Shown piece after piece: positions 5,277-47,624 of a stretch of 64,000 nucleotides of DNA (position 1 is the stretch's first letter; each line of letters starts with the position of its first letter). The position numbers and the translations under genes are program-made. Origin of the DNA: a virus; IMG/VR virus record IMGVR_UViG_3300021356_000007, positions 27,889-91,888 of that record. One strand, 5' to 3'. Below the pieces are notes generated by a model. That model saw nothing but the letters and a program-made list of their open reading frames with translations, ran no database searches and was not told the origin of the DNA.

Positions 5277-6572
5277 TCAATCTTTTTTCTTTTCAGAATC
5301 AAGTTTTTCCCTCTTGCCATTCTTTGAAGGGCCCGGGCCTGCTTTAGAACCGATAACAATAACCATGCCATGTGCTGGCTTTTTGCTACCTTCTTTTTTG
5401 TTCAAATCTTCTTCACCTTTACCGTCAGCAGCGAACTTAGGGACTTTCTTGCCCTCATGCTCTACCATTTCCAGTTCTCCCTTAGCCGTACATCCCATTT
5501 TATTGACGCAGTTTTCTTTACCGCATCCGGGGCATTTAGCCTTAGACATTTCTTCATTCATCCCGTAAGGGCAGGTCATTTTACCGATGCACTCAGGTTT
5601 AGCGCATCCAGCGCACCTTGCTTTGTACATCATATCTTCAACTTGCTTCTTTATTTCTTCGCCTATATTGTTTGTAAACATATACTCACCTAATGATTTC
5701 CTAGTCCCGCCATACTCTGCCTGTTGTTCGAAAGCAGAACCCTGATTCGGATTCCAAATCTCTCTATCAAGAACAGAACTACTCTGAACATTGGAAATAT
5801 CACCCATACCTGCATTAGTCTGACCTAGACCAAATGTTGAACCTGAACCACCCCCACCAATCAAAGACGAAAGGTTTGTCCCTTGCCCGCCACCGCCACC
5901 ACCGGGCGTATTATTTTGCATATAATTCAGACCTGCCATACCGAGTCCTACTGCACCTGCACCCAAAGCACCAAGACCAGCCATTCTTCCAAGAGAAATA
6001 GACTCGTCTACTCCTTTAGCACCCCTTCCAATTTGACTGTAAGCACCTTGTCTGAAAGCACCCCTACGGGCAGCATCTGTTCCGGCTTCTCTTGCCATTC
6101 TTCGAGTATAAGGTTGGTTTCTTGCTAGTTCAAATAATCGAGCGTCTGCGTTAGCAGCAGTCACAGGAGGAAGTTGTCGGCTGACTGCATCAGCCTGCTC
6201 TCTTGCAATACGGTTTCTAGTAGCAGTTTCTGCTGCTTCTCTTGCTGCTGCTCTCTGTGAAGCAATTTGAGCCCCTCTTCTTCCAGCGAGTCTTCCCACT
6301 CCCTTAGCACCTAACTTAACTGCTGCACCTGCACCAAGACCTTGAGCCATTCCTGTACCAAACTCAAGTGCATTAGAACCAAAACTATCGTCACCTTCAG
6401 CGAGTTCCATACCAATGAATGGGTCTGTGATTTGATTATCACGGACATTCTTATAACCTTGATAAGCACCATAGCCCAATAATGCCAATGGTATAAGCGG
6501 AAGTGCCTTGTTTACGGTGTCTTCTTTAACCACCGACCATGCTCGGTCAATCGGCGAAATAGATTCCGACAT
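5277..6572 (-). CDS. Gly/Ala-rich putative internal virion/ejection protein with AWxxxK leader, hydrophobic glycine zippers and a duplicated Cys motif
   Basis: SPIDRAWSVVKE leader; ALPLIPLALLGYGAY; GRMAGLGALGAGAVGLGMAG; KARCAGCAKPEC and KAKCPGCGKENC. Confidence 0.65.
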   Translation of the reverse strand: MSESISPIDRAWSVVKEDTVNKALPLIPLALLGYGAYQGYKNVRDNQITDPFIGMELAEGDDSFGSNALEFGTGMAQGLGAGAAVKLGAKGVGRLAGRRGAQIASQRAAAREAAETATRNRIAREQADAVSRQLPPVTAANADARLFELARNQPYTRRMAREAGTDAARRGAFRQGAYSQIGRGAKGVDESISLGRMAGLGALGAGAVGLGMAGLNYMQNNTPGGGGGGQGTNLSSLIGGGGSGSTFGLGQTNAGMGDISNVQSSSVLDREIWNPNQGSAFEQQAEYGGTRKSLGEYMFTNNIGEEIKKQVEDMMYKARCAGCAKPECIGKMTCPYGMNEEMSKAKCPGCGKENCVNKMGCTAKGELEMVEHEGKKVPKFAADGKGEEDLNKKEGSKKPAHGMVIVIGSKAGPGPSKNGKREKLDSEKKKD

Positions 6573-6750
6573 GAATATCCCCATGCTGTTTGTTTTCATA
6601 AGCCTGTTGCAAGTAATGGTAACTTTCTGCGGCTTCAACAAGTAGGTTCATAGCCTCTATGCTACCGTCTTGAAGGTCTTGTATCTTACTCAAGTTGTAT
6701 TCACTAACCTTGAGTAACTCTTTCAAAAGTGTGTTCCAAAAATCTTCCAA
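6547..6750 (-). CDS. Small hypothetical protein (TTG start; MEDFWNTLLKE leader variant)
   Basis: Purine-rich RBS before TTG; fills the gap in the operon. Confidence 0.55.
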   Translation of the reverse strand: MEDFWNTLLKELLKVSEYNLSKIQDLQDGSIEAMNLLVEAAESYHYLQQAYENKQHGDIHVGIYFAD

Positions 6751-6760
6751 GTCAGTCCCT

Positions 6761-7324
6761 CTACCTAACCAGTACTATATCTGATTTAAGAGTACCTCGT
6801 TCTTTGAAATGTCGGGCTCTGTTGCTATGAGGGTCTTCTGCTACCAAAGTGTGGTCTTTGGTGTGACTCATATCAGGTCCACCCTGTCCGTAAATACCTC
6901 TTTTCCTGCGCTCACGATTCAACTCTTCACGATACTTGACACGCTTAGGACTAGACTCATACTTCTTGTCATACTCCAACTTGTGCCTTTTGGCTTCAGG
7001 GCTGACAGGACTCTTGATAACCAAGACTCCTTTGACAATAGTAGGCTTACCGCCGACACCTTGTTTCTTAGCACGCTTTCTTTTGGTAGCAGCCTGCTTC
7101 TGACCGCTAGTCATTTCACCACTGGTCTTGGGTGTTTTGCTGCTGACTCTCACACTTGGTCTACACTTTGGATAGCCTTTGCTTCCTTTCTTGGCTTTCG
7201 ACCTACCACAAGGAGGGTGCTTACCATCCTTGTCTTTACGACTGACATCTACCCACTTTTCTTTGAACCATCTGTTGAGGTTCTTGACAACTAATGTGTC
7301 ATGACAAGTGCATCTATCGTTCAT
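6761..7324 (-). CDS. Highly basic two-module protein: N-terminal LNRWFKEKWVD module (DUF5872-like) and C-terminal degenerate HNH-like module
   Basis: K/R-rich; PCGR...YPKCRP; GPDMSH...HSNRARH. Confidence 0.55.
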   Translation of the reverse strand: MNDRCTCHDTLVVKNLNRWFKEKWVDVSRKDKDGKHPPCGRSKAKKGSKGYPKCRPSVRVSSKTPKTSGEMTSGQKQAATKRKRAKKQGVGGKPTIVKGVLVIKSPVSPEAKRHKLEYDKKYESSPKRVKYREELNRERRKRGIYGQGGPDMSHTKDHTLVAEDPHSNRARHFKERGTLKSDIVLVR

Positions 7325-7527
7325 TTTTTACCCGCCCAAGCATCACATACATGGTCTGCTCGACACATGAAGTCGTACCATTCACAATAGCCCGTCATAG
7401 GGTCATCGGTCTTCGAGGAGTCCCACGCTTTACAATTACCGCACTTTTCAGAGCCAGTGGCTTTTCTATAATTAGGCGCATCCTCTTTGCCCTTAATTAT
7501 AGCCCACGCTTCTTCGAGAGGTATCAT
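7321..7527 (-). CDS. Small HiPIP-like four-Cys protein with AWxxxK leader
   Basis: PNYR....KCGNC...GYC...VCDAW resembles high-potential iron-sulfur protein Cys spacing; leader PLEEAWAIIKG. Confidence 0.5.
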   Translation of the reverse strand: MIPLEEAWAIIKGKEDAPNYRKATGSEKCGNCKAWDSSKTDDPMTGYCEWYDFMCRADHVCDAWAGKK

Positions 7528-7727
7528 TTCTTCTTCCCCTTTTTCTTACCACGGAACTTACCCTTACAGTATTGAACAGCCCAGCCATTTGCATAAGCAG
7601 ATGGATAAACTTTGAATTTTCTTTTTGCTGCTGCTTTACCAGCAGGACAGAGTTTCTTTTCTAAAAAATCAAAAGCAGAGTCGATACCTATGCAATGTCC
7701 ACAGTCGCACTCACTCAACAGTTCCAC
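7524..7727 (-). CDS. Small basic protein (KFKVYPSAYANGW motif, DUF5872-like)
   Basis: Motif common in small basic phage proteins; Cys-containing leader ending in SAFDFLEKK. Confidence 0.55.
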   Translation of the reverse strand: MELLSECDCGHCIGIDSAFDFLEKKLCPAGKAAAKRKFKVYPSAYANGWAVQYCKGKFRGKKKGKKK

Positions 7728-8104
7728 CTCTTTAATGCCGCACCTTTAGGTGTTAATTTACCTTTTTTACTGGTTGGACCTTTAACTCCACTCATACGAG
7801 CACAGAATGATTTTCTCCTTTTCGATGCCTTGCTACCCCTTTTTAGTTTAGAAGGCTTCTTAGTGACAGGTCTTTTCAGATTTGCGCCCGTCTTACGCTT
7901 TGCTGCCGCACGACCCTTAGCATTGAGTCCTCCAGTCTTGGCGTGTTTGTTAGGATTGTAACCGTGGAAAGGTTTTGACTTTTTCTTGGCTTTCATAACC
8001 GCAAGACTGAGTTCCATAGGACTACAGCAATCACAGAAATTGACATCCGACCAGTCGGTTTTACCTACAATGTCAGCCTCAGTCAACCATTCTATATCTG
8101 TCAT
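7715..8104 (-). CDS. Small basic protein (RRKSFCARM...ALKRWNC motif)
   Basis: Acidic Cys leader ending in AVMKA, then a very K/R-rich domain; ATG overlaps the upstream TGA. Confidence 0.6.
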   Translation of the reverse strand: MTDIEWLTEADIVGKTDWSDVNFCDCCSPMELSLAVMKAKKKSKPFHGYNPNKHAKTGGLNAKGRAAAKRKTGANLKRPVTKKPSKLKRGSKASKRRKSFCARMSGVKGPTSKKGKLTPKGAALKRWNC

Positions 8105-15950: not shown

Positions 15951-16380
15951 TATAAAATACACAGAGACAAACCAAGCAGATACACTGAACAGACTGGACT
16001 ACCTCTTGCAGGTAGTCAAAGACAGACAAGCCATGCAGAGAGGTGACGAAGGATGGGAGTACGGCTTCGATAGTGATGCAGAAATCACCATCAGTACAGC
16101 GTACGATGGGGCTCTCATCAGACCATCTAAGACTATGGCTAAGCAATGGATTAAAGATTCATGGAACAGTATGAGAAGAATGTACGACCCTGATAACTTA
16201 CCCGATTACATAGAGTCTGTATCTCCTGAGTTCGACCTTGAACTTACGAAGTACGGTACGATTTGGTTGAGACCTCGTGTGAGAACAGAAAGGTCAGAAC
16301 AAAACAAAGCGTACCTTGCTGAAGCACAGCAAGCGAGAGAAGAAATTTATTCAAAGCACTACGGAGATGATGAAGAATGA
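15943..16380 (+). CDS. Hypothetical early protein
   Basis: GGTGA RBS before MNDIKY. Confidence 0.65.
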   Translation: MNDIKYTETNQADTLNRLDYLLQVVKDRQAMQRGDEGWEYGFDSDAEITISTAYDGALIRPSKTMAKQWIKDSWNSMRRMYDPDNLPDYIESVSPEFDLELTKYGTIWLRPRVRTERSEQNKAYLAEAQQAREEIYSKHYGDDEE

Positions 16381-16543
16381 ATGACGCAGATTGGATAATA
16401 TTATCACAGGCTGAAATAGATTACATTGTTAATTGTATGTGGTATTTACAATCCTATAAAGTAAATAGAGAAGAATTAGCGAAGAAAATAACGAGCCTAC
16501 CTGCTGGTAGAAAGAGGCTACAATACTGGGGAGATGATGAAGA

Positions 16544-17077
16544 ATGACAGAAGAGATACACTTCGAGAAAGAAGCATGTGTACAATGCTTAGGTTGCTAC
16601 AACGAAGGGAGACTGAACTTCAAGTGGGTCAACGCTGAGTACATACAAGAGAACATCCAAGACCTGAACCCATGCAAGCGAGCCGACCATGAAGAATACA
16701 TGATGGCTGATACTAACTTTGGACTGACCCACAAGATGGGTGAGTACCCTGACTGGGAAGTAGTAGCACAGGTGATGGAACTGATTGAAGAACACGGAGA
16801 GCCGTTCAAAGTGTGGCTCACTTACTCAGACACAGACCACTTGGATGTCAGCGAACTTGCTGACATATTCATGGAAGAATATCGTGGCGAAATGTCTGAG
16901 AAAGATTACGCATACGAATACATAAATTCCATTTACTCACTTTCTGACCTCGACTACATCATTACAGGCAACATCGACTACGAGGGTGTGTGGATTGACC
17001 TCAGTCACGGACAACACTGGAGTCACACAACTGGCTCACCTAACTATAACACTTACATATTTGAGAGGCGATACTAA
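16544..17077 (+). CDS. ardA: ArdA-like antirestriction (DNA-mimic) protein
   Basis: VQCLGCYNEGRLNFKWV, EEYMMAD, EEYRGE, IDYEGVWIDL match the ArdA pattern; very acidic. Confidence 0.7.
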   Translation: MTEEIHFEKEACVQCLGCYNEGRLNFKWVNAEYIQENIQDLNPCKRADHEEYMMADTNFGLTHKMGEYPDWEVVAQVMELIEEHGEPFKVWLTYSDTDHLDVSELADIFMEEYRGEMSEKDYAYEYINSIYSLSDLDYIITGNIDYEGVWIDLSHGQHWSHTTGSPNYNTYIFERRY

Positions 17078-17995: not shown

Positions 17996-18600
17996 ACAAA
18001 CTAACACAACACGAACAAGAAGCAATTGACTGGTGGAATGAAAAACTATCCGAACAAGAGTACCCCTCTGACTACGGGGGAGAGGACTACTGGAAAGATG
18101 ACGGATGGATTCTTGCTACCTCTTGGAATCCTTCATTGGGTAAAGTAAATGAGATAGCATTCGATTTATTCAAGCAAGACTTAGAAGAAGAAGAACCTGA
18201 CAACATTGAGCAAGTTAGGTTCAAGCACTGGGCTTGTGGCTATGTGCTACAACTGAATGTCAGACCCATCGTTAACAATAGACTAACCAAAGTCGGAGAG
18301 ATGGTGTACGATTACAGCATCAACGATGGCTCGATGGATTACTTTGACTTAGCATACGAGGATGAAAGATACTACGAATGGTGTGCAGAAATGATGAGAG
18401 ACTATGTTGAGTGGGAACTCAGAGATGAAGAAGAGTTCGATGACTTGACTGACGAACAATACGAATTGATTACTACCGCACTTGAGCATGAAGAACCCTA
18501 CGCTACTGTTGAGTATGATGGTAGTGTATACATAAGTGACAGAAACTTTGACCTAATCACATTCGCAAGAGAGATACTAGCAAAGGAGGAAGAAGAATGA
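17992..18600 (+). CDS. Very acidic early protein
   Basis: D/E-rich 202-aa ORF; RFKHWACGYV motif. Confidence 0.7.
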   Translation: MNKLTQHEQEAIDWWNEKLSEQEYPSDYGGEDYWKDDGWILATSWNPSLGKVNEIAFDLFKQDLEEEEPDNIEQVRFKHWACGYVLQLNVRPIVNNRLTKVGEMVYDYSINDGSMDYFDLAYEDERYYEWCAEMMRDYVEWELRDEEEFDDLTDEQYELITTALEHEEPYATVEYDGSVYISDRNFDLITFAREILAKEEEE

Positions 18601-18887
18601 AAGAAGAAACAAGAAAGAAATTAGAATACATCGAGAAACAGAAAGAAAAATATCGAAAGTACAGCAAAGAACGATTGATAGAAATGGCCCTAAGTGCTGG
18701 TGCTCTTTGGGAAATCGCAGACAACTGGGGCATGTGTGAAGATGACTATACCATGCACGACCTATACGAAAAACTTGACGAGCGTTATGCTTGGGATGAT
18801 GGTTGGGATGGAAGCAGAATTATTCTCAAAGAACTATACACATACACAGAAGAAGATGGATGGATAAGAAAGGAGGAAGAAGAATGA
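18597..18887 (+). CDS. Hypothetical early protein
   Basis: ATGA-coupled ORF. Confidence 0.6.
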   Translation: MKEETRKKLEYIEKQKEKYRKYSKERLIEMALSAGALWEIADNWGMCEDDYTMHDLYEKLDERYAWDDGWDGSRIILKELYTYTEEDGWIRKEEEE

Positions 18888-21953: not shown

Positions 21954-22207
21954 ATATGGGAGGCGCATGGAGAAACATGGTAAGAGTAGCCTGTTATGTT
22001 TCCATAGACATCTATGATTGGGGTAAGAATGAGATAGAGTTAATGGTAGAAGATATACGGTGTGTAGAAACTGTAGTTGATTTCTTGAGAGCATATCAAA
22101 GCACATTTGGTGTTGATATGAAAGATAAAATCGAATGGGCTTTCTTAGCCGATATAAAGATACAAGAGGAATACTATGCTTCGAAAGAAAAGGAGGAGGA
22201 AGAATGA
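21950..22207 (+). CDS. Small hypothetical protein
   Basis: ATGA-coupled ORF. Confidence 0.55.
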   Translation: MNMGGAWRNMVRVACYVSIDIYDWGKNEIELMVEDIRCVETVVDFLRAYQSTFGVDMKDKIEWAFLADIKIQEEYYASKEKEEEE

Positions 22208-22632
22208 GAGCCTTCCCCTACTCAAAACACAGGAGAACGGTTGAGATTTCTAACCACCAATATGTACTCAAGCAACTCATGAACAAGTTCAAACTAACTG
22301 ACTATCAGATAGTCAGGTACGAAGATGAGGACTGGATAGAAGTCAAAGAGTCGCAAGGTGCATACGAATTCATACAACAGTGCATGAAGGCAGAGGAACA
22401 ATACCCTGTCCTAAATGATATGCACTACGCAGAACTTGAGTGGGCTGGAATCGTTGACGCTATGCGTAGCAGGGCGAAGTCATTGGGCACTATCATCGTC
22501 TCCATCGAGGACTTCCATGACGCACTAATAGACCACTCTATCGAGATAATAGAGGACACCCCACAGAAGTACATTGTACTATGTGGTGACGACACCTTCC
22601 TGAAAATACTGAACGGAGATGAAGAAGAATGA
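22204..22632 (+). CDS. Hypothetical protein
   Basis: Start at MRAFPY by ATGA coupling; YPVLNDMHYAELE motif. Confidence 0.65.
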   Translation: MRAFPYSKHRRTVEISNHQYVLKQLMNKFKLTDYQIVRYEDEDWIEVKESQGAYEFIQQCMKAEEQYPVLNDMHYAELEWAGIVDAMRSRAKSLGTIIVSIEDFHDALIDHSIEIIEDTPQKYIVLCGDDTFLKILNGDEEE

Positions 22633-22868
22633 ATGATGCTGAAAAGGAATTAGTTGAAAGGTTGTTCGCAGAAGTCGAAAGACTGCAAGCAATAGTCGAA
22701 GAAGATAACGAAGTGCTGAGGAATTCGATAGATACTATCGCAGAACTGCGTATTCAGAACAGGCGACTGCGTTCAATTGCAGATGACTTGTATGCTTACA
22801 TTGTAAGTGATGCAGATATTTCACTAAAGGTGATTGAAGAACAGATGGACTGGAGGGAAGAAGAATGA
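22629..22868 (+). CDS. Small coiled-coil protein (LFAEVERL block)
   Basis: ATGA-coupled ORF. Confidence 0.6.
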   Translation: MNDAEKELVERLFAEVERLQAIVEEDNEVLRNSIDTIAELRIQNRRLRSIADDLYAYIVSDADISLKVIEEQMDWREEE

Positions 22869-23092: not shown

Positions 23093-23341
23093 ATGATTGA
23101 CACAGACAAATACGAAGGACTCACACATGACGAAGCGTTAGAAGTTTGGAACACAAAAGGCATACCTATGGGTAGGTGCGATTATTGTTTGGGCTTCTTT
23201 CCTATGACACATTTCAATTCATTGAATGCACAAAAGCACATCACTTTTCAAGACGAGATTTGCGTTAAGTGCTTTGAAGAAAAGAAAAGAACAGGCGGTT
23301 ATTCTAAAGAACAATTGAAACTATGGGGTGAAGAAGAATGA
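23093..23341 (+). CDS. MIDTDK-family small protein with CxxC..CxxC Zn finger
   Basis: MIDTDKYEG...CDYC...CVKC. Confidence 0.65.
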   Translation: MIDTDKYEGLTHDEALEVWNTKGIPMGRCDYCLGFFPMTHFNSLNAQKHITFQDEICVKCFEEKKRTGGYSKEQLKLWGEEE

Positions 23342-24075: not shown

Positions 24076-24430
24076 ATGTAATTTAACAAGAGAAGAATTG
24101 ATTGACGAGTGTTTGAGACTATGGGAAGGGATAGACTATCTAATGCGCTATGCACCGAATACTATTGGAGTCAATGTCAAATACGGATGGAGAGTATCGG
24201 AATGCTTACAGCGTGATAAGTTTGTGGAAGAAGGCGGTGAAGATATTCTTTACGGTGATGTATACGAGCAAAAACACACTAGCGACTTTGCGCCTGAATC
24301 TATGCAAGAAAGATATGCAACACTTCCCCCAAGAGATTTCTTTTGGAAAAGATTAGAGAAAGCGATAGACGAAAGCGCAAGGCTAGGAAAGAAACGATGG
24401 GAAAAAGCAAGAAAGGAGATAGAAGAATGA
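24062..24430 (+). CDS. Hypothetical protein
   Basis: GAGGTGA RBS. Confidence 0.6.
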   Translation: MKMIECNLTREELIDECLRLWEGIDYLMRYAPNTIGVNVKYGWRVSECLQRDKFVEEGGEDILYGDVYEQKHTSDFAPESMQERYATLPPRDFFWKRLEKAIDESARLGKKRWEKARKEIEE

Positions 24431-25421: not shown

Positions 25422-25811
25422 ATGACAACGACAAAGAATACACTTAGAAAAGAACTCCGTAAGATACAGGAGAAGATGGAACTACTATCGGATTTCGAGA
25501 GTTACAATTTCGAACACAAGACTTGCGAAAACAACGAACATGAATGGGCAAACCCTGAAGTCATATCGCACGAGGCAGGTTGTATCAAAACAAGTGATAC
25601 TTGCAGACTTTGTGGCGTGACGACCATCAGGATATACAACCTAGACAAAGTCGTATACGAAGATGACTACGAGGAATTCAGAGACGAATCCCTCGACCAA
25701 GAAACCACAGAAACAGATGACAAACCTACACTTCCACTGGAGAAAACCAGCCAAAGCGATGGCACATACAAAGTGGATGTTGCTAGTATTTTAGGGAGAG
25801 ATGAAGAATGA
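25422..25811 (+). CDS. Hypothetical protein (C/H Zn motif, acidic tail)
   Basis: ORF directly after promoter. Confidence 0.65.
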   Translation: MTTTKNTLRKELRKIQEKMELLSDFESYNFEHKTCENNEHEWANPEVISHEAGCIKTSDTCRLCGVTTIRIYNLDKVVYEDDYEEFRDESLDQETTETDDKPTLPLEKTSQSDGTYKVDVASILGRDEE

Positions 25812-32622: not shown

Positions 32623-33335
32623 CACAAACACCGGAAGAAGAACTACAGACCATACTTGAAAGAGTGATAGACGGAGGACTATGGCAACCAGCAGGGCTGG
32701 GACTATCCTATGTCCGTAGTGGAGACAGAGAGATTCAACTTGTATCTCAAGAGAACAACCCTACATCGGCTCAAGCAAGAATCAGAATGAAACTGCTGGC
32801 TGAAAGCATAGGTTGGTCTGTCGATGAAAGTAATGTACAACTGAAAGATGTCCAGCACTTGTCTCCTCAAGAGGCACACATGCAAGAGATGGCTCTCAGA
32901 CAAGAGATGGCACAGAACTGGAAATGCCAATGTGGTACACCACTGTCAGCCTTCCCACTGGAAGATGGTAAGTGGGTTCATGACGGACAGTCAGAAATGA
33001 AACTACCCCATGGTGAAGTTGAACTGGTTGAGCAGTGGTCTGTCGCAATCGACTGCCCTGTGTGTGAACTGAGAATACCACTTGAGCCATACGACTACGG
33101 TCTGTTGGCTGGCGATGATGCTATGCTCACTTACAAGACACCCAATGGTGTAACATACACAGCACTTTCGAGACCTGAAATCATAGAAAGAATTGACAGC
33201 GAGGCGACTGGTAACTTTGACCTGAATAGTTTACTCATGGTACTTGGGACATTTTGTCCTAGGTACGGAGACTTGCTACCTCCTCATGTAAGAGGTAGCG
33301 TTGTATTGAAAACAGAAGGAGATGAAGAAGAATGA
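32619..33335 (+). CDS. Zn-binding hypothetical protein
   Basis: CQCG, CPVC and FCP motifs. Confidence 0.7.
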   Translation: MTQTPEEELQTILERVIDGGLWQPAGLGLSYVRSGDREIQLVSQENNPTSAQARIRMKLLAESIGWSVDESNVQLKDVQHLSPQEAHMQEMALRQEMAQNWKCQCGTPLSAFPLEDGKWVHDGQSEMKLPHGEVELVEQWSVAIDCPVCELRIPLEPYDYGLLAGDDAMLTYKTPNGVTYTALSRPEIIERIDSEATGNFDLNSLLMVLGTFCPRYGDLLPPHVRGSVVLKTEGDEEE

Positions 33336-33486
33336 TACTAGAAGATAAATTGGAGGAGATGAACTCTGTAGACCTTGAAGAACTGATTAATAAACTGAAG
33401 AAGCGACTAAAAAGGGTGAAGGAAGATGAATTCTTGGCGGAATTTCATGCAAAGCATTTCTCAGGACAAAGCGAGAGGGAAGAAGA

Positions 33487-33753
33487 ATGAAGGTAGAAAT
33501 GATACCGATTGAGGGAGTCATCGTAAGATGTCTCATAGTAGACGACAATGACAAATGGACTCACTGTGAGAACTGTGGGGCTCAGAATTACAATCACGAA
33601 TTACTGGCTAAGGAAGACGATGAATGGTGTATGGATTGCAACGACAAGCATTACCGTAAAGATTGGTCTGACATGCAATTGGGACAATGGACTGTCCAGC
33701 AAATGATTGCTGGTAAGATTACCCATGTAGTCCGTGATGCGAACAAAAAATGA
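33487..33753 (+). CDS. Small Zn-finger protein
   Basis: CENCG...CMDC. Confidence 0.6.
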   Translation: MKVEMIPIEGVIVRCLIVDDNDKWTHCENCGAQNYNHELLAKEDDEWCMDCNDKHYRKDWSDMQLGQWTVQQMIAGKITHVVRDANKK

Positions 33754-33974
33754 GAGGAATAGATATGAAGAGATTTCCAAAATCAAAAGGTAAGATACAG
33801 GCACTGAACATTTGCATCATGCAATACACATGTATTGAGGGAAGCGAAAGAGATTGGTTCAAAACATACAATGACGGTATGGACACTTTCGGTAGACCTA
33901 TCATTTGTACAGCAGAAGATATTGATTGGGCTATGGAATACCTGTGGGAAAGATGTCAGAAGGTGGAAGCATGA
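33750..33974 (+). CDS. Small hypothetical protein
   Basis: ORF coupled to the glycosylase gene. Confidence 0.5.
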   Translation: MRGIDMKRFPKSKGKIQALNICIMQYTCIEGSERDWFKTYNDGMDTFGRPIICTAEDIDWAMEYLWERCQKVEA

Positions 33975-34480
33975 ACATATTTGTATTAGACAAAGACCCT
34001 GTCAAGGCAGCGAAGTACATTGACGACCAAAGAATCAGCAAGATGATTATTGAGTCAGGACAAATGATGCGAGCAGCACTGGGTAGACATGGCATGAGTG
34101 AAGAAGACTGCCGACAGTTCGGCATCCTGACTAAGAGTGGTAACCCTTGGCGTGTCACTCACAAGAATCATCCTTGTACACTGTGGGCTGGTGAAACTAG
34201 AATGAACTTCATGTGGCTTGCTACTCATGCCCTTGCTATGTGCAAAGAGTTTGAGTATCGTTATCTCAAAGAACACGCATGTCGTAAACCAATCATGCAC
34301 ATGATTGACTACATGGACATGTTCATTCCTGAAGGTGACTACACACCTTTCGCTCAGGCTATGCCTGACGAGTACAAGGATGACGATGCAGTATTTGCTT
34401 ATCGTAGATACTACAAGAGCAAGGACAACATCAGATACAGAAAAACAGATGTCCCTACTTGGTGGGAGGTGACGGCGTGA
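33971..34480 (+). CDS. Pyrimidine-dimer DNA glycosylase / DenV-like protein
   Basis: MNIFVLD.DP..AA, KMIIESGQM, HKNHPCTLW, TPFAQAMPDEYK, AYRRYY. Confidence 0.75.
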   Translation: MNIFVLDKDPVKAAKYIDDQRISKMIIESGQMMRAALGRHGMSEEDCRQFGILTKSGNPWRVTHKNHPCTLWAGETRMNFMWLATHALAMCKEFEYRYLKEHACRKPIMHMIDYMDMFIPEGDYTPFAQAMPDEYKDDDAVFAYRRYYKSKDNIRYRKTDVPTWWEVTA

Positions 34481-34632
34481 GTGAATGCTTTGATGACGAG
34501 TATTGGGAACACCATGCAAAAGAGCAATTGCTGAAATGCAAAGGTTGTACTGGTTGCCCTATTACTTACTATCCTCTTACTACAATAGTAGGCTATGGTT
34601 TAGAGTGTGAATGCGTGGAGGTGACGGCGTGA
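34477..34632 (+). CDS. Cys-rich micro-ORF cassette 1 (51 aa, ends EVTA)
   Basis: Hand translation; GTG start inside repeat 1, TGA inside repeat 2. Confidence 0.6.
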   Translation: MSECFDDEYWEHHAKEQLLKCKGCTGCPITYYPLTTIVGYGLECECVEVTA

Positions 34633-34838
34633 AGGATATTGTAGAATACAGAATCCATTATGGTGAGGATGGAGACTCACACGACATTCTGTATTATGAG
34701 GGTAAGGATTGGCGCAAGTGGAAACAGCACATTGGCGAAGAAGGAGTCCAATGGATTGAGAGAGTGGTTGACACTTTCTGTTCCAACGGGGATTTGATTA
34801 GTTCGGAGTATGAAACCCTGTGGGAGGTGACGGCGTGA
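34629..34838 (+). CDS. Micro-ORF cassette 2 (ends EVTA)
   Basis: GTG in repeat 2, TGA in repeat 3. Confidence 0.6.
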   Translation: MKDIVEYRIHYGEDGDSHDILYYEGKDWRKWKQHIGEEGVQWIERVVDTFCSNGDLISSEYETLWEVTA

Positions 34839-34966
34839 ATCATGAATACAGAATAAAGCGAATTAGAAATATCATCAAGCGGTTTGAAGAAAAGGAAGGT
34901 GGCAACATTGGTGACCTCGTGGACGCTTGGGAAAGAATCAAAGAACAAGTGGAGGTGACGGAGTGA
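34835..34966 (+). CDS. Micro-ORF cassette 3 (43 aa, ends EVTE)
   Basis: Hand translation open between repeats 3 and 4. Confidence 0.55.
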   Translation: MNHEYRIKRIRNIIKRFEEKEGGNIGDLVDAWERIKEQVEVTE

Positions 34967-35139
34967 AGTGCATACCAAAGAAAAACAGTCGTGCAATTTC
35001 CTATTCAAGCCAAGTTGATTGGTTGCTGGACATTGACTGCGCTACTTGTAGGAGTCGGACATCAATGTGTAGGGTCAAGGTGACAATGGATGAAATGGAA
35101 GATTGGATTGCTGAACGAGGCGTGGAGGTGACGGCATGA
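34963..35139 (+). CDS. Micro-ORF cassette 4 (CxxC, ends EVTA)
   Basis: GTG in repeat 4, TGA in repeat 5. Confidence 0.6.
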   Translation: MKCIPKKNSRAISYSSQVDWLLDIDCATCRSRTSMCRVKVTMDEMEDWIAERGVEVTA

Positions 35140-35297
35140 AGTGTTGTGAGAAGATAGATGATGATTGGATAAATGGTGATATGTGGCATGATAATCACAC
35201 TACATTTGGGTTTAGTGGCAGGATGCTTTTAGTGACTTACCAATGCCCTCACTGTGGTAAAAGAAGTGAGAGAGATTTCTTAGAGGTGAATGAGTGA
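35136..35297 (+). CDS. Micro-ORF cassette 5 (CC...CPHCG, ends EVNE)
   Basis: Hand translation; TGA overlaps the MTase GTG. Confidence 0.55.
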   Translation: MKCCEKIDDDWINGDMWHDNHTTFGFSGRMLLVTYQCPHCGKRSERDFLEVNE

Positions 35298-36073
35298 AGA
35301 GCATTCTAAGATATGTCGGTGGTAAGAGTAGGGCAGTCAAGCACATCCTACCTTACCTTGAGGGCGCAGACACATTGTACTCTCCCTTCTTTGGGGGAGG
35401 CTCAATCGAGTTTGCCTTCTCCGAGAAAGGTAAGGTCATCGGTTGTGACTTGTACAAACCAGTCGCAATGTTTTGGCAACAGGTACTCAGAGACCCTGAC
35501 CTTGTAGCAGACGAGGTACAGAAATTTCACCCTCTACCAAAGTGTGACTTTGTTTCTTTACAGCATCTGTTACCTCACATGGAAATACCAGTCAACATAG
35601 CATGTTCCTTTTATGTCCTGAACAGGGCATCATTTTCAGGCTCAACAAATTCAGGTGGTATGTCACCTGAACATCCAAGATTTAATCAAGCGTCTATTGA
35701 CAGATTGAGAGAATTCTCAGCACCAAATGTAGAGGTGCATCACAGTGACGCATTCGTTTTCCTCAAAGGTTTGATGGGGCAGAATCCATCAGGCAAAGTG
35801 ATTTACCTTGACCCACCTTACATGATTAAGAACAACTTGTACGGTAACAAAGGAGACATGCACAGAAACTTCGACCATGAAAAGTTAGTCGAGGTCGTCA
35901 AAGGATTAGATGCACTGGGTTGGAAGATAGTCATGTCTTACAACAATAACGAGGATATTGAGAAGTGGTATAGTGACTTTGAAATCATCCCGCTTGAATG
36001 GAAGTATGGGATGAATAGTAGTAAAGAATCAAATGAGATTTTGATAGTAAGTAAAAGAGAGGTGAATGAATGA
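35294..36073 (+). CDS. Dam-like (D12 class) N6-adenine DNA methyltransferase
   Basis: RYVGGKS, SPFFGGGS, YVLNRASFSG, YLDPPY. Confidence 0.88.
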   Translation: MKSILRYVGGKSRAVKHILPYLEGADTLYSPFFGGGSIEFAFSEKGKVIGCDLYKPVAMFWQQVLRDPDLVADEVQKFHPLPKCDFVSLQHLLPHMEIPVNIACSFYVLNRASFSGSTNSGGMSPEHPRFNQASIDRLREFSAPNVEVHHSDAFVFLKGLMGQNPSGKVIYLDPPYMIKNNLYGNKGDMHRNFDHEKLVEVVKGLDALGWKIVMSYNNNEDIEKWYSDFEIIPLEWKYGMNSSKESNEILIVSKREVNE

Positions 36074-36239
36074 AAGAAAAAACAGTCTGCGTATGTGGTT
36101 CAACCACTTTCAATATGTACATGCCAACCGAACACGGAGAGGAAGATATATTCCTATGCACTGAATGTGGTAGGATTTACAATCGAACCGTACTAGGTTA
36201 CTGGTCGGATGAAACAAAGAAAAAGGAGAAGGTGAAAGA

Positions 36240-36551
36240 ATGAATAGGAAAGATGTAATTTGGAGTAATGAGATAAAGGACTTTGCCGCTTATCTCTTTG
36301 GCTTTACAGGAGTGTCTAAGCAAGCGGCTGACTATCTATGGGGTAGAGCAGTTGGCTGGTACAAACGAGGACTTACAGGTGTAAGTGAAGAAGGTTTAGA
36401 ACAAGAAATTGCTGATGACATGATGTCAACAAAGGAATACAAAGACATAGTGAAATTGTTACACTGCTTGTCAGCGTATTTTGGGCACGACCATCCGAAA
36501 GAATTTGTTGATTATTTCAAAGAGTACTATTTAGTAGAGGTGAAAGTATGA
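36240..36551 (+). CDS. Hypothetical protein
   Basis: AGGTGA RBS. Confidence 0.6.
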   Translation: MNRKDVIWSNEIKDFAAYLFGFTGVSKQAADYLWGRAVGWYKRGLTGVSEEGLEQEIADDMMSTKEYKDIVKLLHCLSAYFGHDHPKEFVDYFKEYYLVEVKV

Positions 36552-36793
36552 AGAAAGAATTTTGGGAAAACAGATATGAAGAATTGATGAATGCAGTGAA
36601 GCAAGGTGCTGATATAGCGTTCTGTGACAAATGTGACGAATGGTACGACTATGAGCAAGGTAGGCAATGTGGTTGCTGCCCCATCTGTGTAGGTGACTGG
36701 GATGGTGACATGGATGGTAACATATGTAGGAGTTGCTTAGAAGAAATGACGGCAGCCCCTGCGACCATGAGTGCTTGGGAGAGAAACGCATGA
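36548..36793 (+). CDS. Small Cys-rich protein
   Basis: CDKC, CGCCPIC, CRSC. Confidence 0.6.
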   Translation: MKKEFWENRYEELMNAVKQGADIAFCDKCDEWYDYEQGRQCGCCPICVGDWDGDMDGNICRSCLEEMTAAPATMSAWERNA

Positions 36794-37041
36794 TAACTGC
36801 CGAGTTCGCTAACGGTAAGGCTCAGGCTAACCTCATCAAGGGTGAGAAAGAAACATACCATGTAACTGTATATTCTGATGCACCTAAACACGATTATCAA
36901 TGTATCATGGACACAATCTCTTGGGGAAGCAAACAGGGCTTTGCTATTATGAGTACAAGAGAAAAGCGTATTGTCTCGGTCACGCCTGAGTACAAAGGTA
37001 AGTCAGTAAAACAATTCAGATTCGTAAAGGTAGATGAGTGA
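36790..37041 (+). CDS. Small hypothetical protein
   Basis: ATGA-coupled ORF. Confidence 0.55.
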   Translation: MITAEFANGKAQANLIKGEKETYHVTVYSDAPKHDYQCIMDTISWGSKQGFAIMSTREKRIVSVTPEYKGKSVKQFRFVKVDE

Positions 37042-37318
37042 CATGAGAGGATTCAGTCAGATAATCAAGTGGAGAGTTCCTGCTACTACTTTCAGGTGGA
37101 AAGGTAAGGCAGAAGTCATCATGAGTGTGGCTGACCCTAAAGGTGACTCTGAGCCTAAAATAGACATTAGAGTTAGAAGAACAATTGAGCATCCACAAGG
37201 AGAGGGCTATACAAAAGAGGGAGTGCGCCTGAGTCTTGAAGATGCGAGTTCACTAGCAAAGGCAATCCAACACTCCCTCAAAGAACTGAGGGAAACAGAT
37301 GACACGCAAGAAACTTGA
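37034..37318 (+). CDS. PC4-like ssDNA-binding protein
   Basis: KIDIRV......GYTKEGVRLSLED matches the PC4 fold consensus. Confidence 0.65.
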   Translation: MSDMRGFSQIIKWRVPATTFRWKGKAEVIMSVADPKGDSEPKIDIRVRRTIEHPQGEGYTKEGVRLSLEDASSLAKAIQHSLKELRETDDTQET

Positions 37319-37610
37319 TTATGCTCTGTTAGAGGAAGCACACAAGTTGGCTTTCGACTCACTGGACAAAGATGAAATGTACAGACCGAGAAAAATCTCA
37401 ATTAGAATAACTGAGGCTTACTCGGTTTTACTCAAAAACTGCTACAGAGAAGGCAATCAATACGGCAATAGGAAGCAACTGAGAATAAAAAGAAAGTGGG
37501 CTAGAAAACTAGGCTGGGATTCTCGTGTTTTCAGAGACCATGAAATCATTAAGGGTAAGATATATCCTTGTGAAAACACCAAGTATTTCTACATAGGAGA
37601 GGAAGAGTGA
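37299..37610 (+). CDS. Small basic hypothetical protein
   Basis: ORF coupled to the ligase-like gene. Confidence 0.6.
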   Translation: MTRKKLDYALLEEAHKLAFDSLDKDEMYRPRKISIRITEAYSVLLKNCYREGNQYGNRKQLRIKRKWARKLGWDSRVFRDHEIIKGKIYPCENTKYFYIGEEE

Positions 37611-39064
37611 TGCTACTAGCAGAGGCTGCTACTATCTCAGAGAGTCTGAGAACTCTGTACAGTAAGTACATGACAGACGCTGAAGAGAAGTCTAAGCATT
37701 TCAGAAAGATGCTAGACCTAATCAGGCAAGCAGTCAACAACTCAATTGATGATAGTTCTCAGTTGATTGACATGTACTATCCTGAGTATTCGAGATACCC
37801 AAGGCAGTTCATTTCAATCAGAGAGATAAGAGACGATGTCTGTCGTAAACTATCCATCTCCCCGCTAGTGTGGGATGAGTCATTGGCAGGCAAACCGATA
37901 GTACCTCTGTTGGCTCTTGAGTCTCCTGAATATGGAGGTCAGGGACTGACAGTCAAGCAAGCGTTCAATCTCATGGCTAGGATAAGAGACGAAGGCTTTC
38001 TTCAAGTTGCCAGCAAAATGAATGAGAGAGAAGCCCTACTCTTTTGGGGCAGGGCTACAGACGAGCGACCTCCTATGCCAGTCAATCGTTTTCTACAGAT
38101 AGTGTCGTACACTACAGAGAAGGGGGCTCAGAGCCTCCAATCAATCAATATCATGTTACAGACCATGACTCCCTCTGAGATTATACAGAGGCTGTACTCT
38201 GAGAAAGAGGACATGGAAGTTCGCACTATGCAACCGGGACAGGCTTTCCTTGGCTCGGTCTATAGAGCATGGGACAAGTTAACAACTCCTGATGATGTCT
38301 ATGCAGATGTCATTGAAGGAGACAGGAGATTCCTACACATCACTGAATTCCCAGTAGGGACATTCAAGGGTGTGTTTTACAACCGTCACAAGCAAATGAT
38401 GGGCAAGTCACATGAGCCCATCTACACAGATAGTGAGGCTATCTTTGAGGTAGAAGTTGACGGTAACCAAGTCAAGTATGTTACTGATGTATATGCAGTC
38501 GATGACGATTGGAATGTATACAAAGAGAACTACAAGGACAGGCAAGATAAACTTGCCAAACTGAGACTGGCTGTGCCTACCAAGTCAGGTAAATTCATAC
38601 CTGCCTCTACGGATTTCAGCCATTTGCTTGGGACTTTGGAAGACAACCAAAGGCTCAGATTCGTAAGCACTGGTGCTATCAAATTGGGTAGCAACGGTGG
38701 GTGGGCTATCCTCAAGGATGCCTTTCACATCAATCTACTTGTCACTGCTGTCAAGCGTGACCGTGAGTTCGAGACACACATTAGAGTGTCTGCTATGGAT
38801 GGGTTCGAAACCTATGAAGTAGGACAGATACAGTTAACTGTAGAAGTCGCTCAGCACATGCGTCAGAGGTTGGCATTACAAGGTGTACTCGCAGGACAGG
38901 ACTGGTTACCTGTCGATGAGTATGCTATGGTGGTGGTAGTTGAACTCGCAGAGTTTTCTCTCAGTGACCTTTCTCTTGAGAAAGTGGAACTGAAATACCT
39001 TGATGACGACTTGGGCTACAGTGATGTAACTCAATTAACTGACCTGATAGAAATGAGCAACTGA
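37607..39064 (+). CDS. ATP-dependent DNA ligase-like protein, apparently lacking the catalytic lysine
   Basis: Ligase motifs in order: DVIEGDRRFLH (I), FYNR, IFEVEV (III), YVTDVY (IIIa), WAILK (V), OB domain YEVGQI...WLP..VVVEL. Confidence 0.6.
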   Translation: MMLLAEAATISESLRTLYSKYMTDAEEKSKHFRKMLDLIRQAVNNSIDDSSQLIDMYYPEYSRYPRQFISIREIRDDVCRKLSISPLVWDESLAGKPIVPLLALESPEYGGQGLTVKQAFNLMARIRDEGFLQVASKMNEREALLFWGRATDERPPMPVNRFLQIVSYTTEKGAQSLQSINIMLQTMTPSEIIQRLYSEKEDMEVRTMQPGQAFLGSVYRAWDKLTTPDDVYADVIEGDRRFLHITEFPVGTFKGVFYNRHKQMMGKSHEPIYTDSEAIFEVEVDGNQVKYVTDVYAVDDDWNVYKENYKDRQDKLAKLRLAVPTKSGKFIPASTDFSHLLGTLEDNQRLRFVSTGAIKLGSNGGWAILKDAFHINLLVTAVKRDREFETHIRVSAMDGFETYEVGQIQLTVEVAQHMRQRLALQGVLAGQDWLPVDEYAMVVVVELAEFSLSDLSLEKVELKYLDDDLGYSDVTQLTDLIEMSN

Positions 39065-39112: not shown

Positions 39113-40039
39113 ATGAATTTTAGAGAGAAATACAGACCATCCACTTTGGATGATTTGACAGGTTGTGATGAGTTCGTAAAGTCTGCTAAGACTTGGACCA
39201 TCGACACCTGCCCTCCTAACATTCTAATTGTCGGTAAACCGGGCATCGGTAAGACCAGTGCAGCATACGCCTTAGCAAAGGATATGCTCGGTGAGTTCTT
39301 CGACCCTATGAACTTCAGAGTCACTAATGCTAGTGACGACAGAGGCATTGATTCAGTAAGAGACCTCAAGAGAGTGAGCAAGCAAAAGGGACTAGGAGTA
39401 TCGAGGAAGATTGAGTTCCTAGATGAGTTCGAGAGTTACACATCTCCAGCACAGAAAGCACTCAGACAAATCATGGAGGAGAGTCACAAGACTACTGTAT
39501 TTATCCTGACAGCCAACGACATCTCACCTATACACTCTGCTATCAGAGACAGATGTATCACATTCCACTTCAAGCCAATTGACGATGAGAACACAGGTCG
39601 ATTGGAATACATCATAGATGAAGAAGGACTTCCACAAGAATGGAAAGAACACCTACCTCACCTAATCAAATCTACAGGGGGCTCTCTGAGAAAGTCTATT
39701 GACACACTTGAGAGCCTAGTCAGAGAGCCTGACGCTTTGTCTGAGAGAATCCGCAGAGACGGTAACTACCTCAGCAAGGCTGCTCTCAATCTAATGGGTA
39801 GTGACTACCCTAAATTAACAGCCTACTTGGTTCAAGCACTTGAATCAGGTATCTCCGGCTTTGGAGTCATCAAAGGACTCCGATGGAGAGCCAAGCCCCT
39901 CATGGAGAATGAGGCAGACTGGCACAATTTCATGCTCACATACGGCGAGTTTGCCGTCTTGTCTACACAATGGCCTGACGATGACTTATCGTATGTTGAG
40001 TACTTTGTAGCAAAACTAAGAAAAAATATGGAGAGATAA
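39113..40039 (+). CDS. rfcS: Replication factor C small subunit (clamp loader)
   Basis: EKYRP, GKPGIGKT, NASDDRGID, LDE, QKALRQIME, IRDRC. Confidence 0.92.
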   Translation: MNFREKYRPSTLDDLTGCDEFVKSAKTWTIDTCPPNILIVGKPGIGKTSAAYALAKDMLGEFFDPMNFRVTNASDDRGIDSVRDLKRVSKQKGLGVSRKIEFLDEFESYTSPAQKALRQIMEESHKTTVFILTANDISPIHSAIRDRCITFHFKPIDDENTGRLEYIIDEEGLPQEWKEHLPHLIKSTGGSLRKSIDTLESLVREPDALSERIRRDGNYLSKAALNLMGSDYPKLTAYLVQALESGISGFGVIKGLRWRAKPLMENEADWHNFMLTYGEFAVLSTQWPDDDLSYVEYFVAKLRKNMER

Positions 40040-46622: not shown

Positions 46623-47624
46623 ATGAGTGACAGAGACTGGAGTGCATACGCCAAGTCTGAATACAACTGGACACCCGGTAGTGAGAAGCATCTGCGAATG
46701 ACTAAGACCAGTTTGACAAGTGATTTTGACTTCTGCCCTAAGCAGTATGAGTACAAAAGAATACACCGTTTACCTGAGCCATCCACTGATGCTATGGTGA
46801 AGGGTACTAATGTCCACGATGCTATTGAGAAGTACTATGATAATGTTCCAACGGTTCTTGATGAACTGTATACATTGGTTCAGAGAGACAAATGGAATGA
46901 AGCAATGCAACTTGCCCTGAGTGTTATTCCTGAACAGGACTATCAACTCGGAGAAGAAGGCTCTATAGAACAAAGAATCAGATGGGATTTACAGAGACTA
47001 CAGAGTGGAGGTAAAGAAGCCTACATGCCCGTAATCAACGAGTTAGAAGTTCATGCCTTTGTCGAAGAAGAGTTTGAGTTCAACGGCGAAGTCCACACAG
47101 TTCCTATCCATTTTGCTGGGAGTATTGACCGAGGTTATGCGACAGAAGATGGTACATACGCTGTAATGGAATTGAAGACAGGTAAGTGGGTTCAGACCAA
47201 AAACAAGAATGATGTGTGGGAAGACTCATCCTTCAAGATGCAATCCATGAGAACAGAGATGGCGTTTTACAAGAGGCTACTAGATTGGGCTAATCACCCG
47301 TTCCAAGATGTCACCCACTGGGGGTGGGTATATCCTTCAGGTGGAGAGAAAGAAGTAGAACCCATGAACAAATACGGCAAAGAACAGAGAGCCGTTAACA
47401 AAATCGTATACGAGGCTTGTACAGGTAGGACTTGGACAACATACTCGAAGAAGATTGATAGAATGAAGAATGCACTATTGACTGCTTATTTCACTGGAGA
47501 CTTCCCTACAAAGGCAAGTACAGGTAAGTGTTCTTGGTGCAATTTCAAATCTATTTGCCCCAGTTGGGAGGGCAGTGATAATCCACAAGAATATCTCGAC
47601 AACTATGAGGGGGATGAGGAATGA
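46623..47624 (+). CDS. Cas4/AddB-like PD-(D/E)xK exonuclease with Fe-S cysteines
   Basis: FCPKQY, GTNVH, GSIDR, ELKTG, CSWCNFKSIC. Confidence 0.85.
   Translation: MSDRDWSAYAKSEYNWTPGSEKHLRMTKTSLTSDFDFCPKQYEYKRIHRLPEPSTDAMVKGTNVHDAIEKYYDNVPTVLDELYTLVQRDKWNEAMQLALSVIPEQDYQLGEEGSIEQRIRWDLQRLQSGGKEAYMPVINELEVHAFVEEEFEFNGEVHTVPIHFAGSIDRGYATEDGTYAVMELKTGKWVQTKNKNDVWEDSSFKMQSMRTEMAFYKRLLDWANHPFQDVTHWGWVYPSGGEKEVEPMNKYGKEQRAVNKIVYEACTGRTWTTYSKKIDRMKNALLTAYFTGDFPTKASTGKCSWCNFKSICPSWEGSDNPQEYLDNYEGDEE

Follow-up and report, generated by a model that had tools for sequence, protein, structure and literature searches.

An array of very short genes joined by one repeated sequence was found in the window analysed here, a 64,000-nt stretch of the IMG/VR virus record IMGVR_UViG_3300021356_000007 (91,888 bp, 89% complete). 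The repeat, GGAGGTGACGGCGTGA, is a junction of 16 nt which carries a Shine-Dalgarno (SD) sequence together with the stop codon of one open reading frame (ORF) and the start codon of the next, and each ORF lying between two junctions is here called a cassette. Comparison of the assembled genomes of related viruses indicates gain, loss, exchange and reordering of single genes, with breaks precisely at this junction. The explanation which we consider probable is that the locus is a hypervariable island of accessory genes, of which the array is the pristine part, and that the junction is both a translational coupling signal and a patch of homology for short-homology recombination.

The junction and its copies in the window

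On the + strand of the window GGAGGTGACGGCGTGA is present exactly at 34465..34480, 34617..34632 and 34823..34838 (junctions 1 to 3) and with a single mismatch at 34951..34966 (junction 4; C12A, GGAGGTGACGGAGTGA) and at 35124..35139 (junction 5; G13A), the gaps between the five copies being 136, 190, 112 and 157 nt. This agrees with an earlier note on this DNA, which had described five repeats with these gaps and had stated that each enclosed stretch is one exact ORF, from the GTG or ATG of one copy to the TGA of the next, with a product ending in EVTA or EVTE; the latter statement holds for the four cassettes c1 to c4. Five or more matches were obtained in none of 100 dinucleotide-preserving shuffles of the window (shuffle mean 0.01), and the whole 91,888-bp record contains only the five copies when up to one mismatch is allowed.

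The upstream frame runs through the repeat as G GAG GTG ACG GCG TGA, giving products that end in EVTA (EVTE once, at junction 4), and the next ORF begins at a GTG, or at the ATG of junction 5, which overlaps the preceding TGA so that the two ORFs share 4 nt. All five copies have the same anatomy, namely GGAGGTGA, then 4 nt, then GTG or ATG overlapping the TGA stop; in junction 1 these parts are the 8-nt SD, a CGGC spacer and a GTG start placed over the TGA. No inverted repeat, symmetry or hairpin was found at any copy. A sixth, degenerate copy (AGAGGTGAATGAGTGA, 35282..35297, +) overlaps the GTG start of a methyltransferase gene, and decayed junctions are present in the window at 33959, 35282, 36058, 36228 and 36536. 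As the genes adjoining them have homologs elsewhere with intact junctions, this suggests that cassettes become fixed in place as their junctions erode.

A 4-nt overlap with GGAGGUGA located 3-7 nt upstream is the arrangement of distal genes in archaeal operons, as reported for Haloferax (Kramer et al. 2014, PMC3986360; Huber et al. 2019, PMC6728339). The junctions have this termination-reinitiation layout, with stop and start overlapping by 4 nt and an SD that is part of the upstream ORF and precedes the start by 3-7 nt, and in vivo they would act as an archaeal-type coupling signal for termination and reinitiation. No terminator-like site was found on the + strand of the array, and promoter-like sites were at chance level (18 against 17.9 expected).

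Distribution and conservation of the junction

Related loci were fetched by means of the Pyr_excise-like protein, encoded by the gene which precedes the array, and by an exact-match scan of IMG/VR; here and below, the numbers of junctions, cassettes and cassette pairs are counts among the matches listed. The loci fetched via the protein have one to six junction copies directly 3' of its gene, with differing spacings, and the scan added many more contigs, the arrays of which have 2 to 10 copies. Altogether there are at least 41 non-redundant arrays on about 35 related contigs, with at least 109 inter-junction segments that are each a single open in-frame ORF; seven segments are not single ORFs. 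The 109 cassettes have a median length of 51 aa, 66 of them encode at least four Cys, and they fall into at least 72 families, 27 with several members. Paralog expansion was rejected as their origin, given this number of families and the fact that the cassettes of the window belong to different ones. The median dN/dS over 25 cassette pairs was 0.11, and the cassettes are therefore real genes, which are under purifying selection.

In five relatives of 90-100 kb all copies are on the coding strand and are gathered in one or two short clusters. Moreover, where the locus holds the Pyr_excise-like gene, 28 of 29 arrays begin at its 3' end. A 20-mer of the junction was also searched in 185,579 cellular species, and arrays were obtained on two marine contigs only, binned as Maricaulis and Opitutales; the remaining matches were single copies, nearly all of them in high-GC Actinomycetota. 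These two contigs (L222, NZMJ01000078.1, Maricaulis sp. bin; L218, CAXXDF010000003.1, Opitutales bin) carry EVTA-junction arrays together with the Pyr_excise-like anchor gene, and are probably viral contigs misbinned into bacterial metagenome-assembled genomes.

The earlier note had also pointed to conservation of the CGGC spacer. When sites were picked by the pattern GGAGGTGA-N4-DTG in the loci fetched via the flanking gene, the spacer was CGGC in 21 of 36 and CAGC in 5 of 36, and since these sites were chosen without reference to the spacer its conservation is no artefact of site picking. The logo of 137 junctions displays a non-palindromic core of about 21 nt, and the approximately 5 nt upstream of the 16-mer are also conserved, at positions which were not used in site picking. 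The codons of the junction are rare in the core genes of this genome (GC 44%), ACG accounting for 6% of Thr, GCG for 9% of Ala and GTG for 15% of Val codons; starts are ATG in 13 of 14 core genes and GTG in 82 of the 109 cassettes (75%). The junction is thus kept at the nucleotide level, against the codon bias of the genome and beyond what an SD sequence needs. A function of the EVTA tail as a peptide tag was judged unlikely, the conservation being at third-codon positions and with rare codons.

Within the core, the polymorphic positions 8-12 are linked to neither neighbouring cassette, positions -9 to -1 travel with the upstream cassette and those from +16 onward travel with the downstream one. 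The unlinked core positions fit exchange inside a shared patch of homology, or recurrent mutation, and not a site that is owned by a cassette.

Cassette mobility and breakpoints

Cassette content and order are clearly not fixed across relatives, which differ by whole cassettes: none of the 72 adjacent cassette pairs recurs, and the members of each multi-member family have different neighbours in every array. The families of the window follow the order F24-F14-F13-F04, whereas in the related contig L147 F13 is located three places ahead of F14, that is, the order of c2 and c3 is inverted, and therefore loss alone is insufficient to explain the arrays. The proposal of the earlier note that this is an expression-ready array, which gains, loses and reorders peptide genes at the repeat, is thus upheld by the comparison of related viruses.

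The breakpoints are sharp. Ten cassette pairs of the same length have 88-100% nucleotide identity within the cassette and random similarity just past the junction on both sides, and the flanks of an eleventh pair (129 against 132 nt) are equally random. In 25 of 33 pairs the amino acid identity of the cassette is higher than that of the adjoining anchor gene, for example 100 against 49%, 96 against 54%, 93 against 50% (c1) and 91 against 44% (c4). Close relatives give the same picture: L147 and L120, whose flanks are 91-95% identical in nucleotides, differ by two events with cuts at junctions, in one of which two cassettes were replaced and in the other two were inserted or deleted, and L009, L006 and L008 (flanks approximately 94%) have respectively no, one and two cassettes in one slot. 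Every cassette of the window is found in another contig as a nucleotide block of about 70% (c1, where the match extends from the anchor gene) to 88% identity, the blocks of c3 and c4 running from junction to junction, and the best nucleotide match of each of these cassettes and of the methyltransferase gene is a different contig. Identical or nearly identical arrays were assembled from different samples (L192/L117, 100%; L095/L097, 99.9%; L006/L007, 99.99%), which rules out assembly chimeras.

Mechanism and alternative explanations

In the explanation proposed here the junction would work at two levels. In the mRNA, the 8-nt SD GGAGGUGA, lying in the last part of the upstream ORF but not in its frame, and followed by a 4-nt spacer and a start that overlaps the stop (GTGA/ATGA), would allow any ORF set between two junctions to be translated as part of a long operon. 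In the DNA, the shared 16-21 nt, (GGCGT)GGAGGTGACGGCGTGA, being identical at the junctions and in many co-circulating viruses, would be the patch of homology. When copies pair out of register, or when genomes meet in a co-infection, recombination or annealing at this patch would delete, insert, replace or reorder whole ORFs, and both frame and expression would be preserved through each exchange. The process would be one of exchange at short homology, or of annealing or template switching at coupling junctions, rather than an enzyme-specific reaction.

No candidate tyrosine recombinase (IntI/integrase, PF00589) was found in the 91,888-bp record, the same search scoring in 14 of 14 control genomes, and the record likewise gave no serine recombinase or resolvase (PF00239) and no match to Rad51/RadA (PF08423). 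The earlier note had proposed Sak4-like and Cas4-like proteins as possible agents. The former was not sustained, as the AAA_24/AAA_25 profiles (PF13479/PF13481) gave only a P-loop match below threshold, which lies in the gene of the RFC-type clamp loader (window 39113-40039); a Cas4-like PD-(D/E)XK nuclease does exist, at 46623-47624.

Between the close relatives compared above there are other indel breakpoints at other shared stop/start junctions, GAGGAGGAATGAACATG and GAAGAAGAATG. Furthermore, cassette replacements between L008 and L009 are also bounded by GAGGAGGAATGAACATG and by junctions of the GAAGAATGA type. Exchange is therefore not confined to the EVTA motif, which is the most standardised dialect among these junctions. 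The lack of a recombinase and of a hairpin, along with the fact that other junction sequences also bound replacements, favours general short-homology recombination.

A dedicated reaction can also be imagined, in which a nuclease, recombinase or annealing protein of the virus (Pyr_excise-like, PD-(D/E)XK or XPF-like candidates) reads the junction, as in an integron deprived of its integrase. The position of 28 of 29 arrays at the 3' end of the Pyr_excise-like gene would be accounted for by such a protein, and so would the conservation of the spacer and of about 5 upstream nt beyond the SD need and the identity of the 16-mer in viruses whose anchor proteins share only 40-50% identity; PD-(D/E)XK and ERCC4/HhH nucleases are in fact encoded within the window. 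Nevertheless we regard it as unlikely, since the record holds no tyrosine or serine recombinase and the junction is without inverted repeat or symmetry. The core positions that vary show no linkage to the cassette on either side, and hence give no sign of a constant point of crossover. Furthermore, cassettes have also been replaced at unrelated junction sequences between the same close relatives, and many phages without an array carry a homolog of the anchor gene. The conservation could instead be explained at the RNA level, if the junction were a translational operator, or a site on early genes where a regulator binds or cleaves, and recombination an incidental by-product. The CGGC spacer and the GTG are kept although other junctions of the same genome use other spacers and ATG, and all copies are on the coding strand within one operon, as would be expected of such a signal. 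The movement of cassettes as units with breakpoints at the junction is left unexplained by it, as is the persistence of decayed junctions beside apparently intact genes, and no candidate regulator was found. An RNA function in place of recombination is rather improbable, and the two are compatible rather than exclusive.

There might also be no mobility at all, the arrays being the result of vertical inheritance and differential loss with junctions that have converged on an optimal coupling sequence, or of assembly chimeras formed at the repeat. It is true that strong SD sequences with ATGA/GTGA overlaps are frequent in this genome, that the same 20-mer arises independently as single copies in high-GC actinobacteria and that all the data are metagenome assemblies. 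However, this has been largely refuted and is highly improbable, considering that the similarity of cassettes reaches twice that of the adjoining core gene, that their order is inverted between genomes, that 0 of 72 adjacencies are conserved, that the junction codons are rare in this genome and that identical arrays come from independent samples. In addition, the repeat is at most about 21 nt and thus below the final k-mers usual in metagenome assemblers, which counts against chimeras.

Some considerations weigh against short-homology recombination at the junction as proposed here. No recombinase was identified in the record, and the enzyme may be one of the host; 16-21 nt is short for classical homologous recombination; the conservation of the CGGC spacer may be due to a trans-acting factor that reads the junction as RNA or DNA; the location of nearly all arrays at the 3' end of one gene could reflect either history or a dedicated function; every dataset consists of metagenome assemblies; and the putative archaeal host is assigned from gene content alone.

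Genes and cassettes of the locus

The left-hand anchor of the array is the Pyr_excise-like gene (33971..34480, +; PF03013, E 6e-7; phrog_624, E 8e-51). Its last 16 nt are junction 1, which adds the tail EVTA to the product, and since its more distant homologs end in ..P.WW without this tail, the junction was appended to the gene in the present clade. The small ORF located before it (33750..33974, +; 74 aa) is a former cassette with a decayed 3' junction, GAAGGTGGAAGCATGA, and a protein that ends in KVEA; its homolog in L176/L191 (89.6% nucleotide identity) is junction-bounded and ends in KVEVTA at a perfect copy.

Cassette c1 (34477..34632, +) encodes a Cys-rich protein of 51 aa with 93% amino acid identity to a cassette of L149 (dN/dS 0.06), where the adjoining anchor gene is only 50% identical and the following cassette differs. 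For the 69-aa product of c2 (34629..34838, +) a beta-beta-alpha-beta-beta fold is predicted, the AlphaFold2 model (pLDDT 81.8, pTM 0.66) having the order strand-strand-helix-strand-strand; it had no significant match in the PDB by sequence and none by Foldseek at E<=0.001. This confident small alpha/beta model is further evidence that the cassettes are genes. Homologs of c2 are present at another array position in L147 and fused into a 118-aa ORF in L117. In the latter (L117:2088-2444) the c2-like ORF runs through the former junction site (..EILWE|SDECL..) into a Cys-rich downstream module, and it seems that loss of the junction fused two cassettes.

Cassette c3 (34835..34966, +; 43 aa) matches an 86% nucleotide block of L147 (8637-8777), junction to junction, and an 85% block in L095/L097; its amino acid identity is 79%, against 46% for the anchor gene. 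Cassette c4 (34963..35139, +; 58 aa, Cys-rich) has 88% nucleotide blocks, again junction to junction, in L174 and L195, where its neighbours differ; the proteins are 91% identical, against 44% for the anchor gene, with dN/dS of 0.08-0.11. Cassette c5 (35136..35297, +; 53 aa, zinc-ribbon-like, with weak zinc-ribbon matches only in Pfam) ends at the decayed junction 6, and its homolog in L112 (83% nucleotide identity) is a proper cassette that ends in VEVTA at an intact junction. No family was assigned to c1 to c4 by Pfam or PHROGs, and PDB sequence searches with the cassettes were empty. The ESM Atlas returned nothing for c2, and its matches for c4 (0.83, among them the Ral antirestriction protein) were at noise level and were not used.

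The gene which follows (35294..36073, +) encodes a Dam-like N6-adenine DNA methyltransferase of the D12 class (PF02086, E 7e-26) and is itself a cassette, its 84% nucleotide homolog in L086 beginning at a perfect junction after two other cassettes. Larger cassettes found elsewhere encode a C5 methyltransferase, an N4/N6 methyltransferase and an ASCH protein. In different viruses one slot is occupied by C5, N4/N6 or D12 Dam-like methyltransferases or by an ASCH protein, all junction-bounded (L167:993-1619; L180:212-955; L146:1274-1675; window 35294-36073). From their position, their size and the presence of methyltransferases, the micro-proteins carried as cargo, mostly Cys-rich and of about 50 aa, may help the virus to take over its host or to counter the host's defences.

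Four further small ORFs (36070-36243, 36240-36551, 36548-36793 and 36790-37041, all +) are linked by decayed junctions of the GGTGA..ATGA type and are the older part of the same variable island. The ORF at 36240 is a member of a family that is junction-bounded in L094, L117 and L198, and the region 36070..37041 has no homolog in the closest relatives, L008 and L009. To the right there are conserved anchor genes (37034..39064, +), found in most relatives, namely an ORF of 94 aa at 37034-37318 and the gene for a 485-aa protein at 37607-39064; their tblastn identities are about 40-78% across the related loci that hold them, and their distance from the Pyr_excise-like gene varies. The ORF between them (37299-37610) has a weak match in L009 only. 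In L018, L019, L022 and L094 the 94-aa and 485-aa genes are placed upstream of the Pyr_excise-like gene and not downstream as in the window (33971-39064), so the core synteny around the island is rearranged too.

A second junction dialect, (GGAG..)GAAGAATGA, is present in the window at 16365-16380, 16532-16547, 18585-18600, 18872-18887, 22192-22207, 22617-22632, 22853-22868, 23326-23341, 24415-24430, 25796-25811, 33320-33335 and 33475-33490. It links many early genes, the proteins of which end in EE or EEE.

The virus and its probable host

Neither megablast of the array region nor tblastn of the 485-aa protein gave any match to cultured relatives among 50,697 phage records, nor did either search return a reference magrovirus genome. 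Replication genes of the record encode a family-B DNA polymerase (PolB), an RFC-type clamp loader, a helicase and PriL-like, ERCC4/HhH and PD-(D/E)XK proteins, and a GroEL gene is located within this replication block. The best full-length matches of PolB are from haloarchaeal tailed viruses, with 24-25% identity. In the relative L180 the PolB homolog is in two adjoining pieces (5474-6766 and 6784-7818), like the split PolB of magrovirus group B1.

Magroviruses, which are viruses of Marine Group II archaea, have genomes of about 65-100 kb, archaeal-type replisome genes and, within the replicative block, a chaperonin gene (Philosof et al. 2017, PMC5434244). The record combines this genome size with an archaeal-type replisome and a chaperonin; MCM, AEP and RadA were either outside the searches or without a match. 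On gene content, and not on phylogeny, this uncultured virus of about 92 kb is probably a magrovirus-like tailed virus of marine archaea.

Comparison with known systems

The closest published parallel is the shuffling of promoter-early stem-loop (PeSL) cassettes in the hyperplastic regions of T4-type phages (Arbiol et al. 2010, PMC2839356; Comeau et al. 2014, PMC4122927), a similar motif of a TATA element plus inverted repeat being reported for halovirus HGTV-1 (PMC3950731). The logic is shared and the element is not. In both cases the small non-essential ORFs of a variable region are separated by copies of one short conserved expression signal, and homologous recombination between repeats is proposed without an integrase; here, too, indels and replacements between close relatives break in the repeat (L147/L120; L008/L009/L006; 11 cassette pairs). 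However, PeSLs are intergenic and consist of a promoter and a terminator hairpin, whereas the junction is a translation signal of 16-21 nt inside overlapping coding sequence, has no hairpin and no apparent promoter, joins cassettes that seem to have no promoter of their own and gives each cassette protein a (G)VEVTA tail. Moreover, the host is here probably archaeal, and mini-circles have been demonstrated for PeSLs whereas the present array is known from assemblies alone. The principle of shuffling at conserved expression signals is thus already known from PeSLs.

The description of the array as integron-like, which had been put forward in the earlier note, holds by analogy only. The polar, co-oriented and apparently promoterless cassettes would be expressed from upstream, the array is anchored beside one conserved gene, relatives differ greatly in what the array contains and in its order, and the cargo includes accessory or defence-related genes, all of which recalls an integron. 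What does not hold is the machinery: the record has no IntI or other tyrosine or serine recombinase and the junction does not form an imperfect palindrome like that of attC. Each attC site is part of one cassette, whereas the junction is common to both neighbours and owned by neither, its core positions being unlinked to either cassette; in addition, the cassettes overlap by 4 nt and are predicted to be translationally coupled.

Modular phage evolution, with conserved linkers at the gene boundaries of lambdoid phages, has reportedly been described by Botstein in 1980 and by Clark et al. in 2001. There, functional modules are said to be exchanged by recombination at short conserved gene-boundary sequences, as they would be here, but those linkers are said to be sporadic and specific to a pair of phages, whereas a single standard linker now joins dozens of unrelated one-gene modules in tandem. 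With archaeal cellular operons the junction shares the ATGA/GTGA overlap and an extended SD which lies in the upstream ORF but in another frame, as in the distal genes of Haloferax. Nevertheless each junction of a cellular operon has its own sequence, whereas here one sequence, with its spacer and rare codons, serves more than 100 junctions in many genomes and marks recombination breakpoints. A full-text search of the literature gave no description of such a junction in archaeal viruses, nor of a linker combining ribosome-binding site, stop and start as a site of exchange.

Significance

How the many tiny orphan genes of viruses originate and are traded is a long-standing question. In the array described here one sequence would handle both expression and exchange, as a natural assembly standard for genes: an ORF flanked by junctions would be translated at once and could be moved between viruses whose core proteins are only 40-50% identical. 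The junction is also a precise and searchable marker for the mobile pool of accessory genes in abundant uncultured marine viruses which probably infect archaea. The resulting catalogue holds at least 72 micro-protein families under purifying selection, which are candidates for host takeover or counter-defence, together with three classes of methyltransferase. If exchange at the junction were after all the work of a dedicated protein, the array would be a counterpart of the integron without an integrase, in which each captured gene is kept in frame and translationally coupled. The array also offers a simple and testable model of recombination at very short homology.

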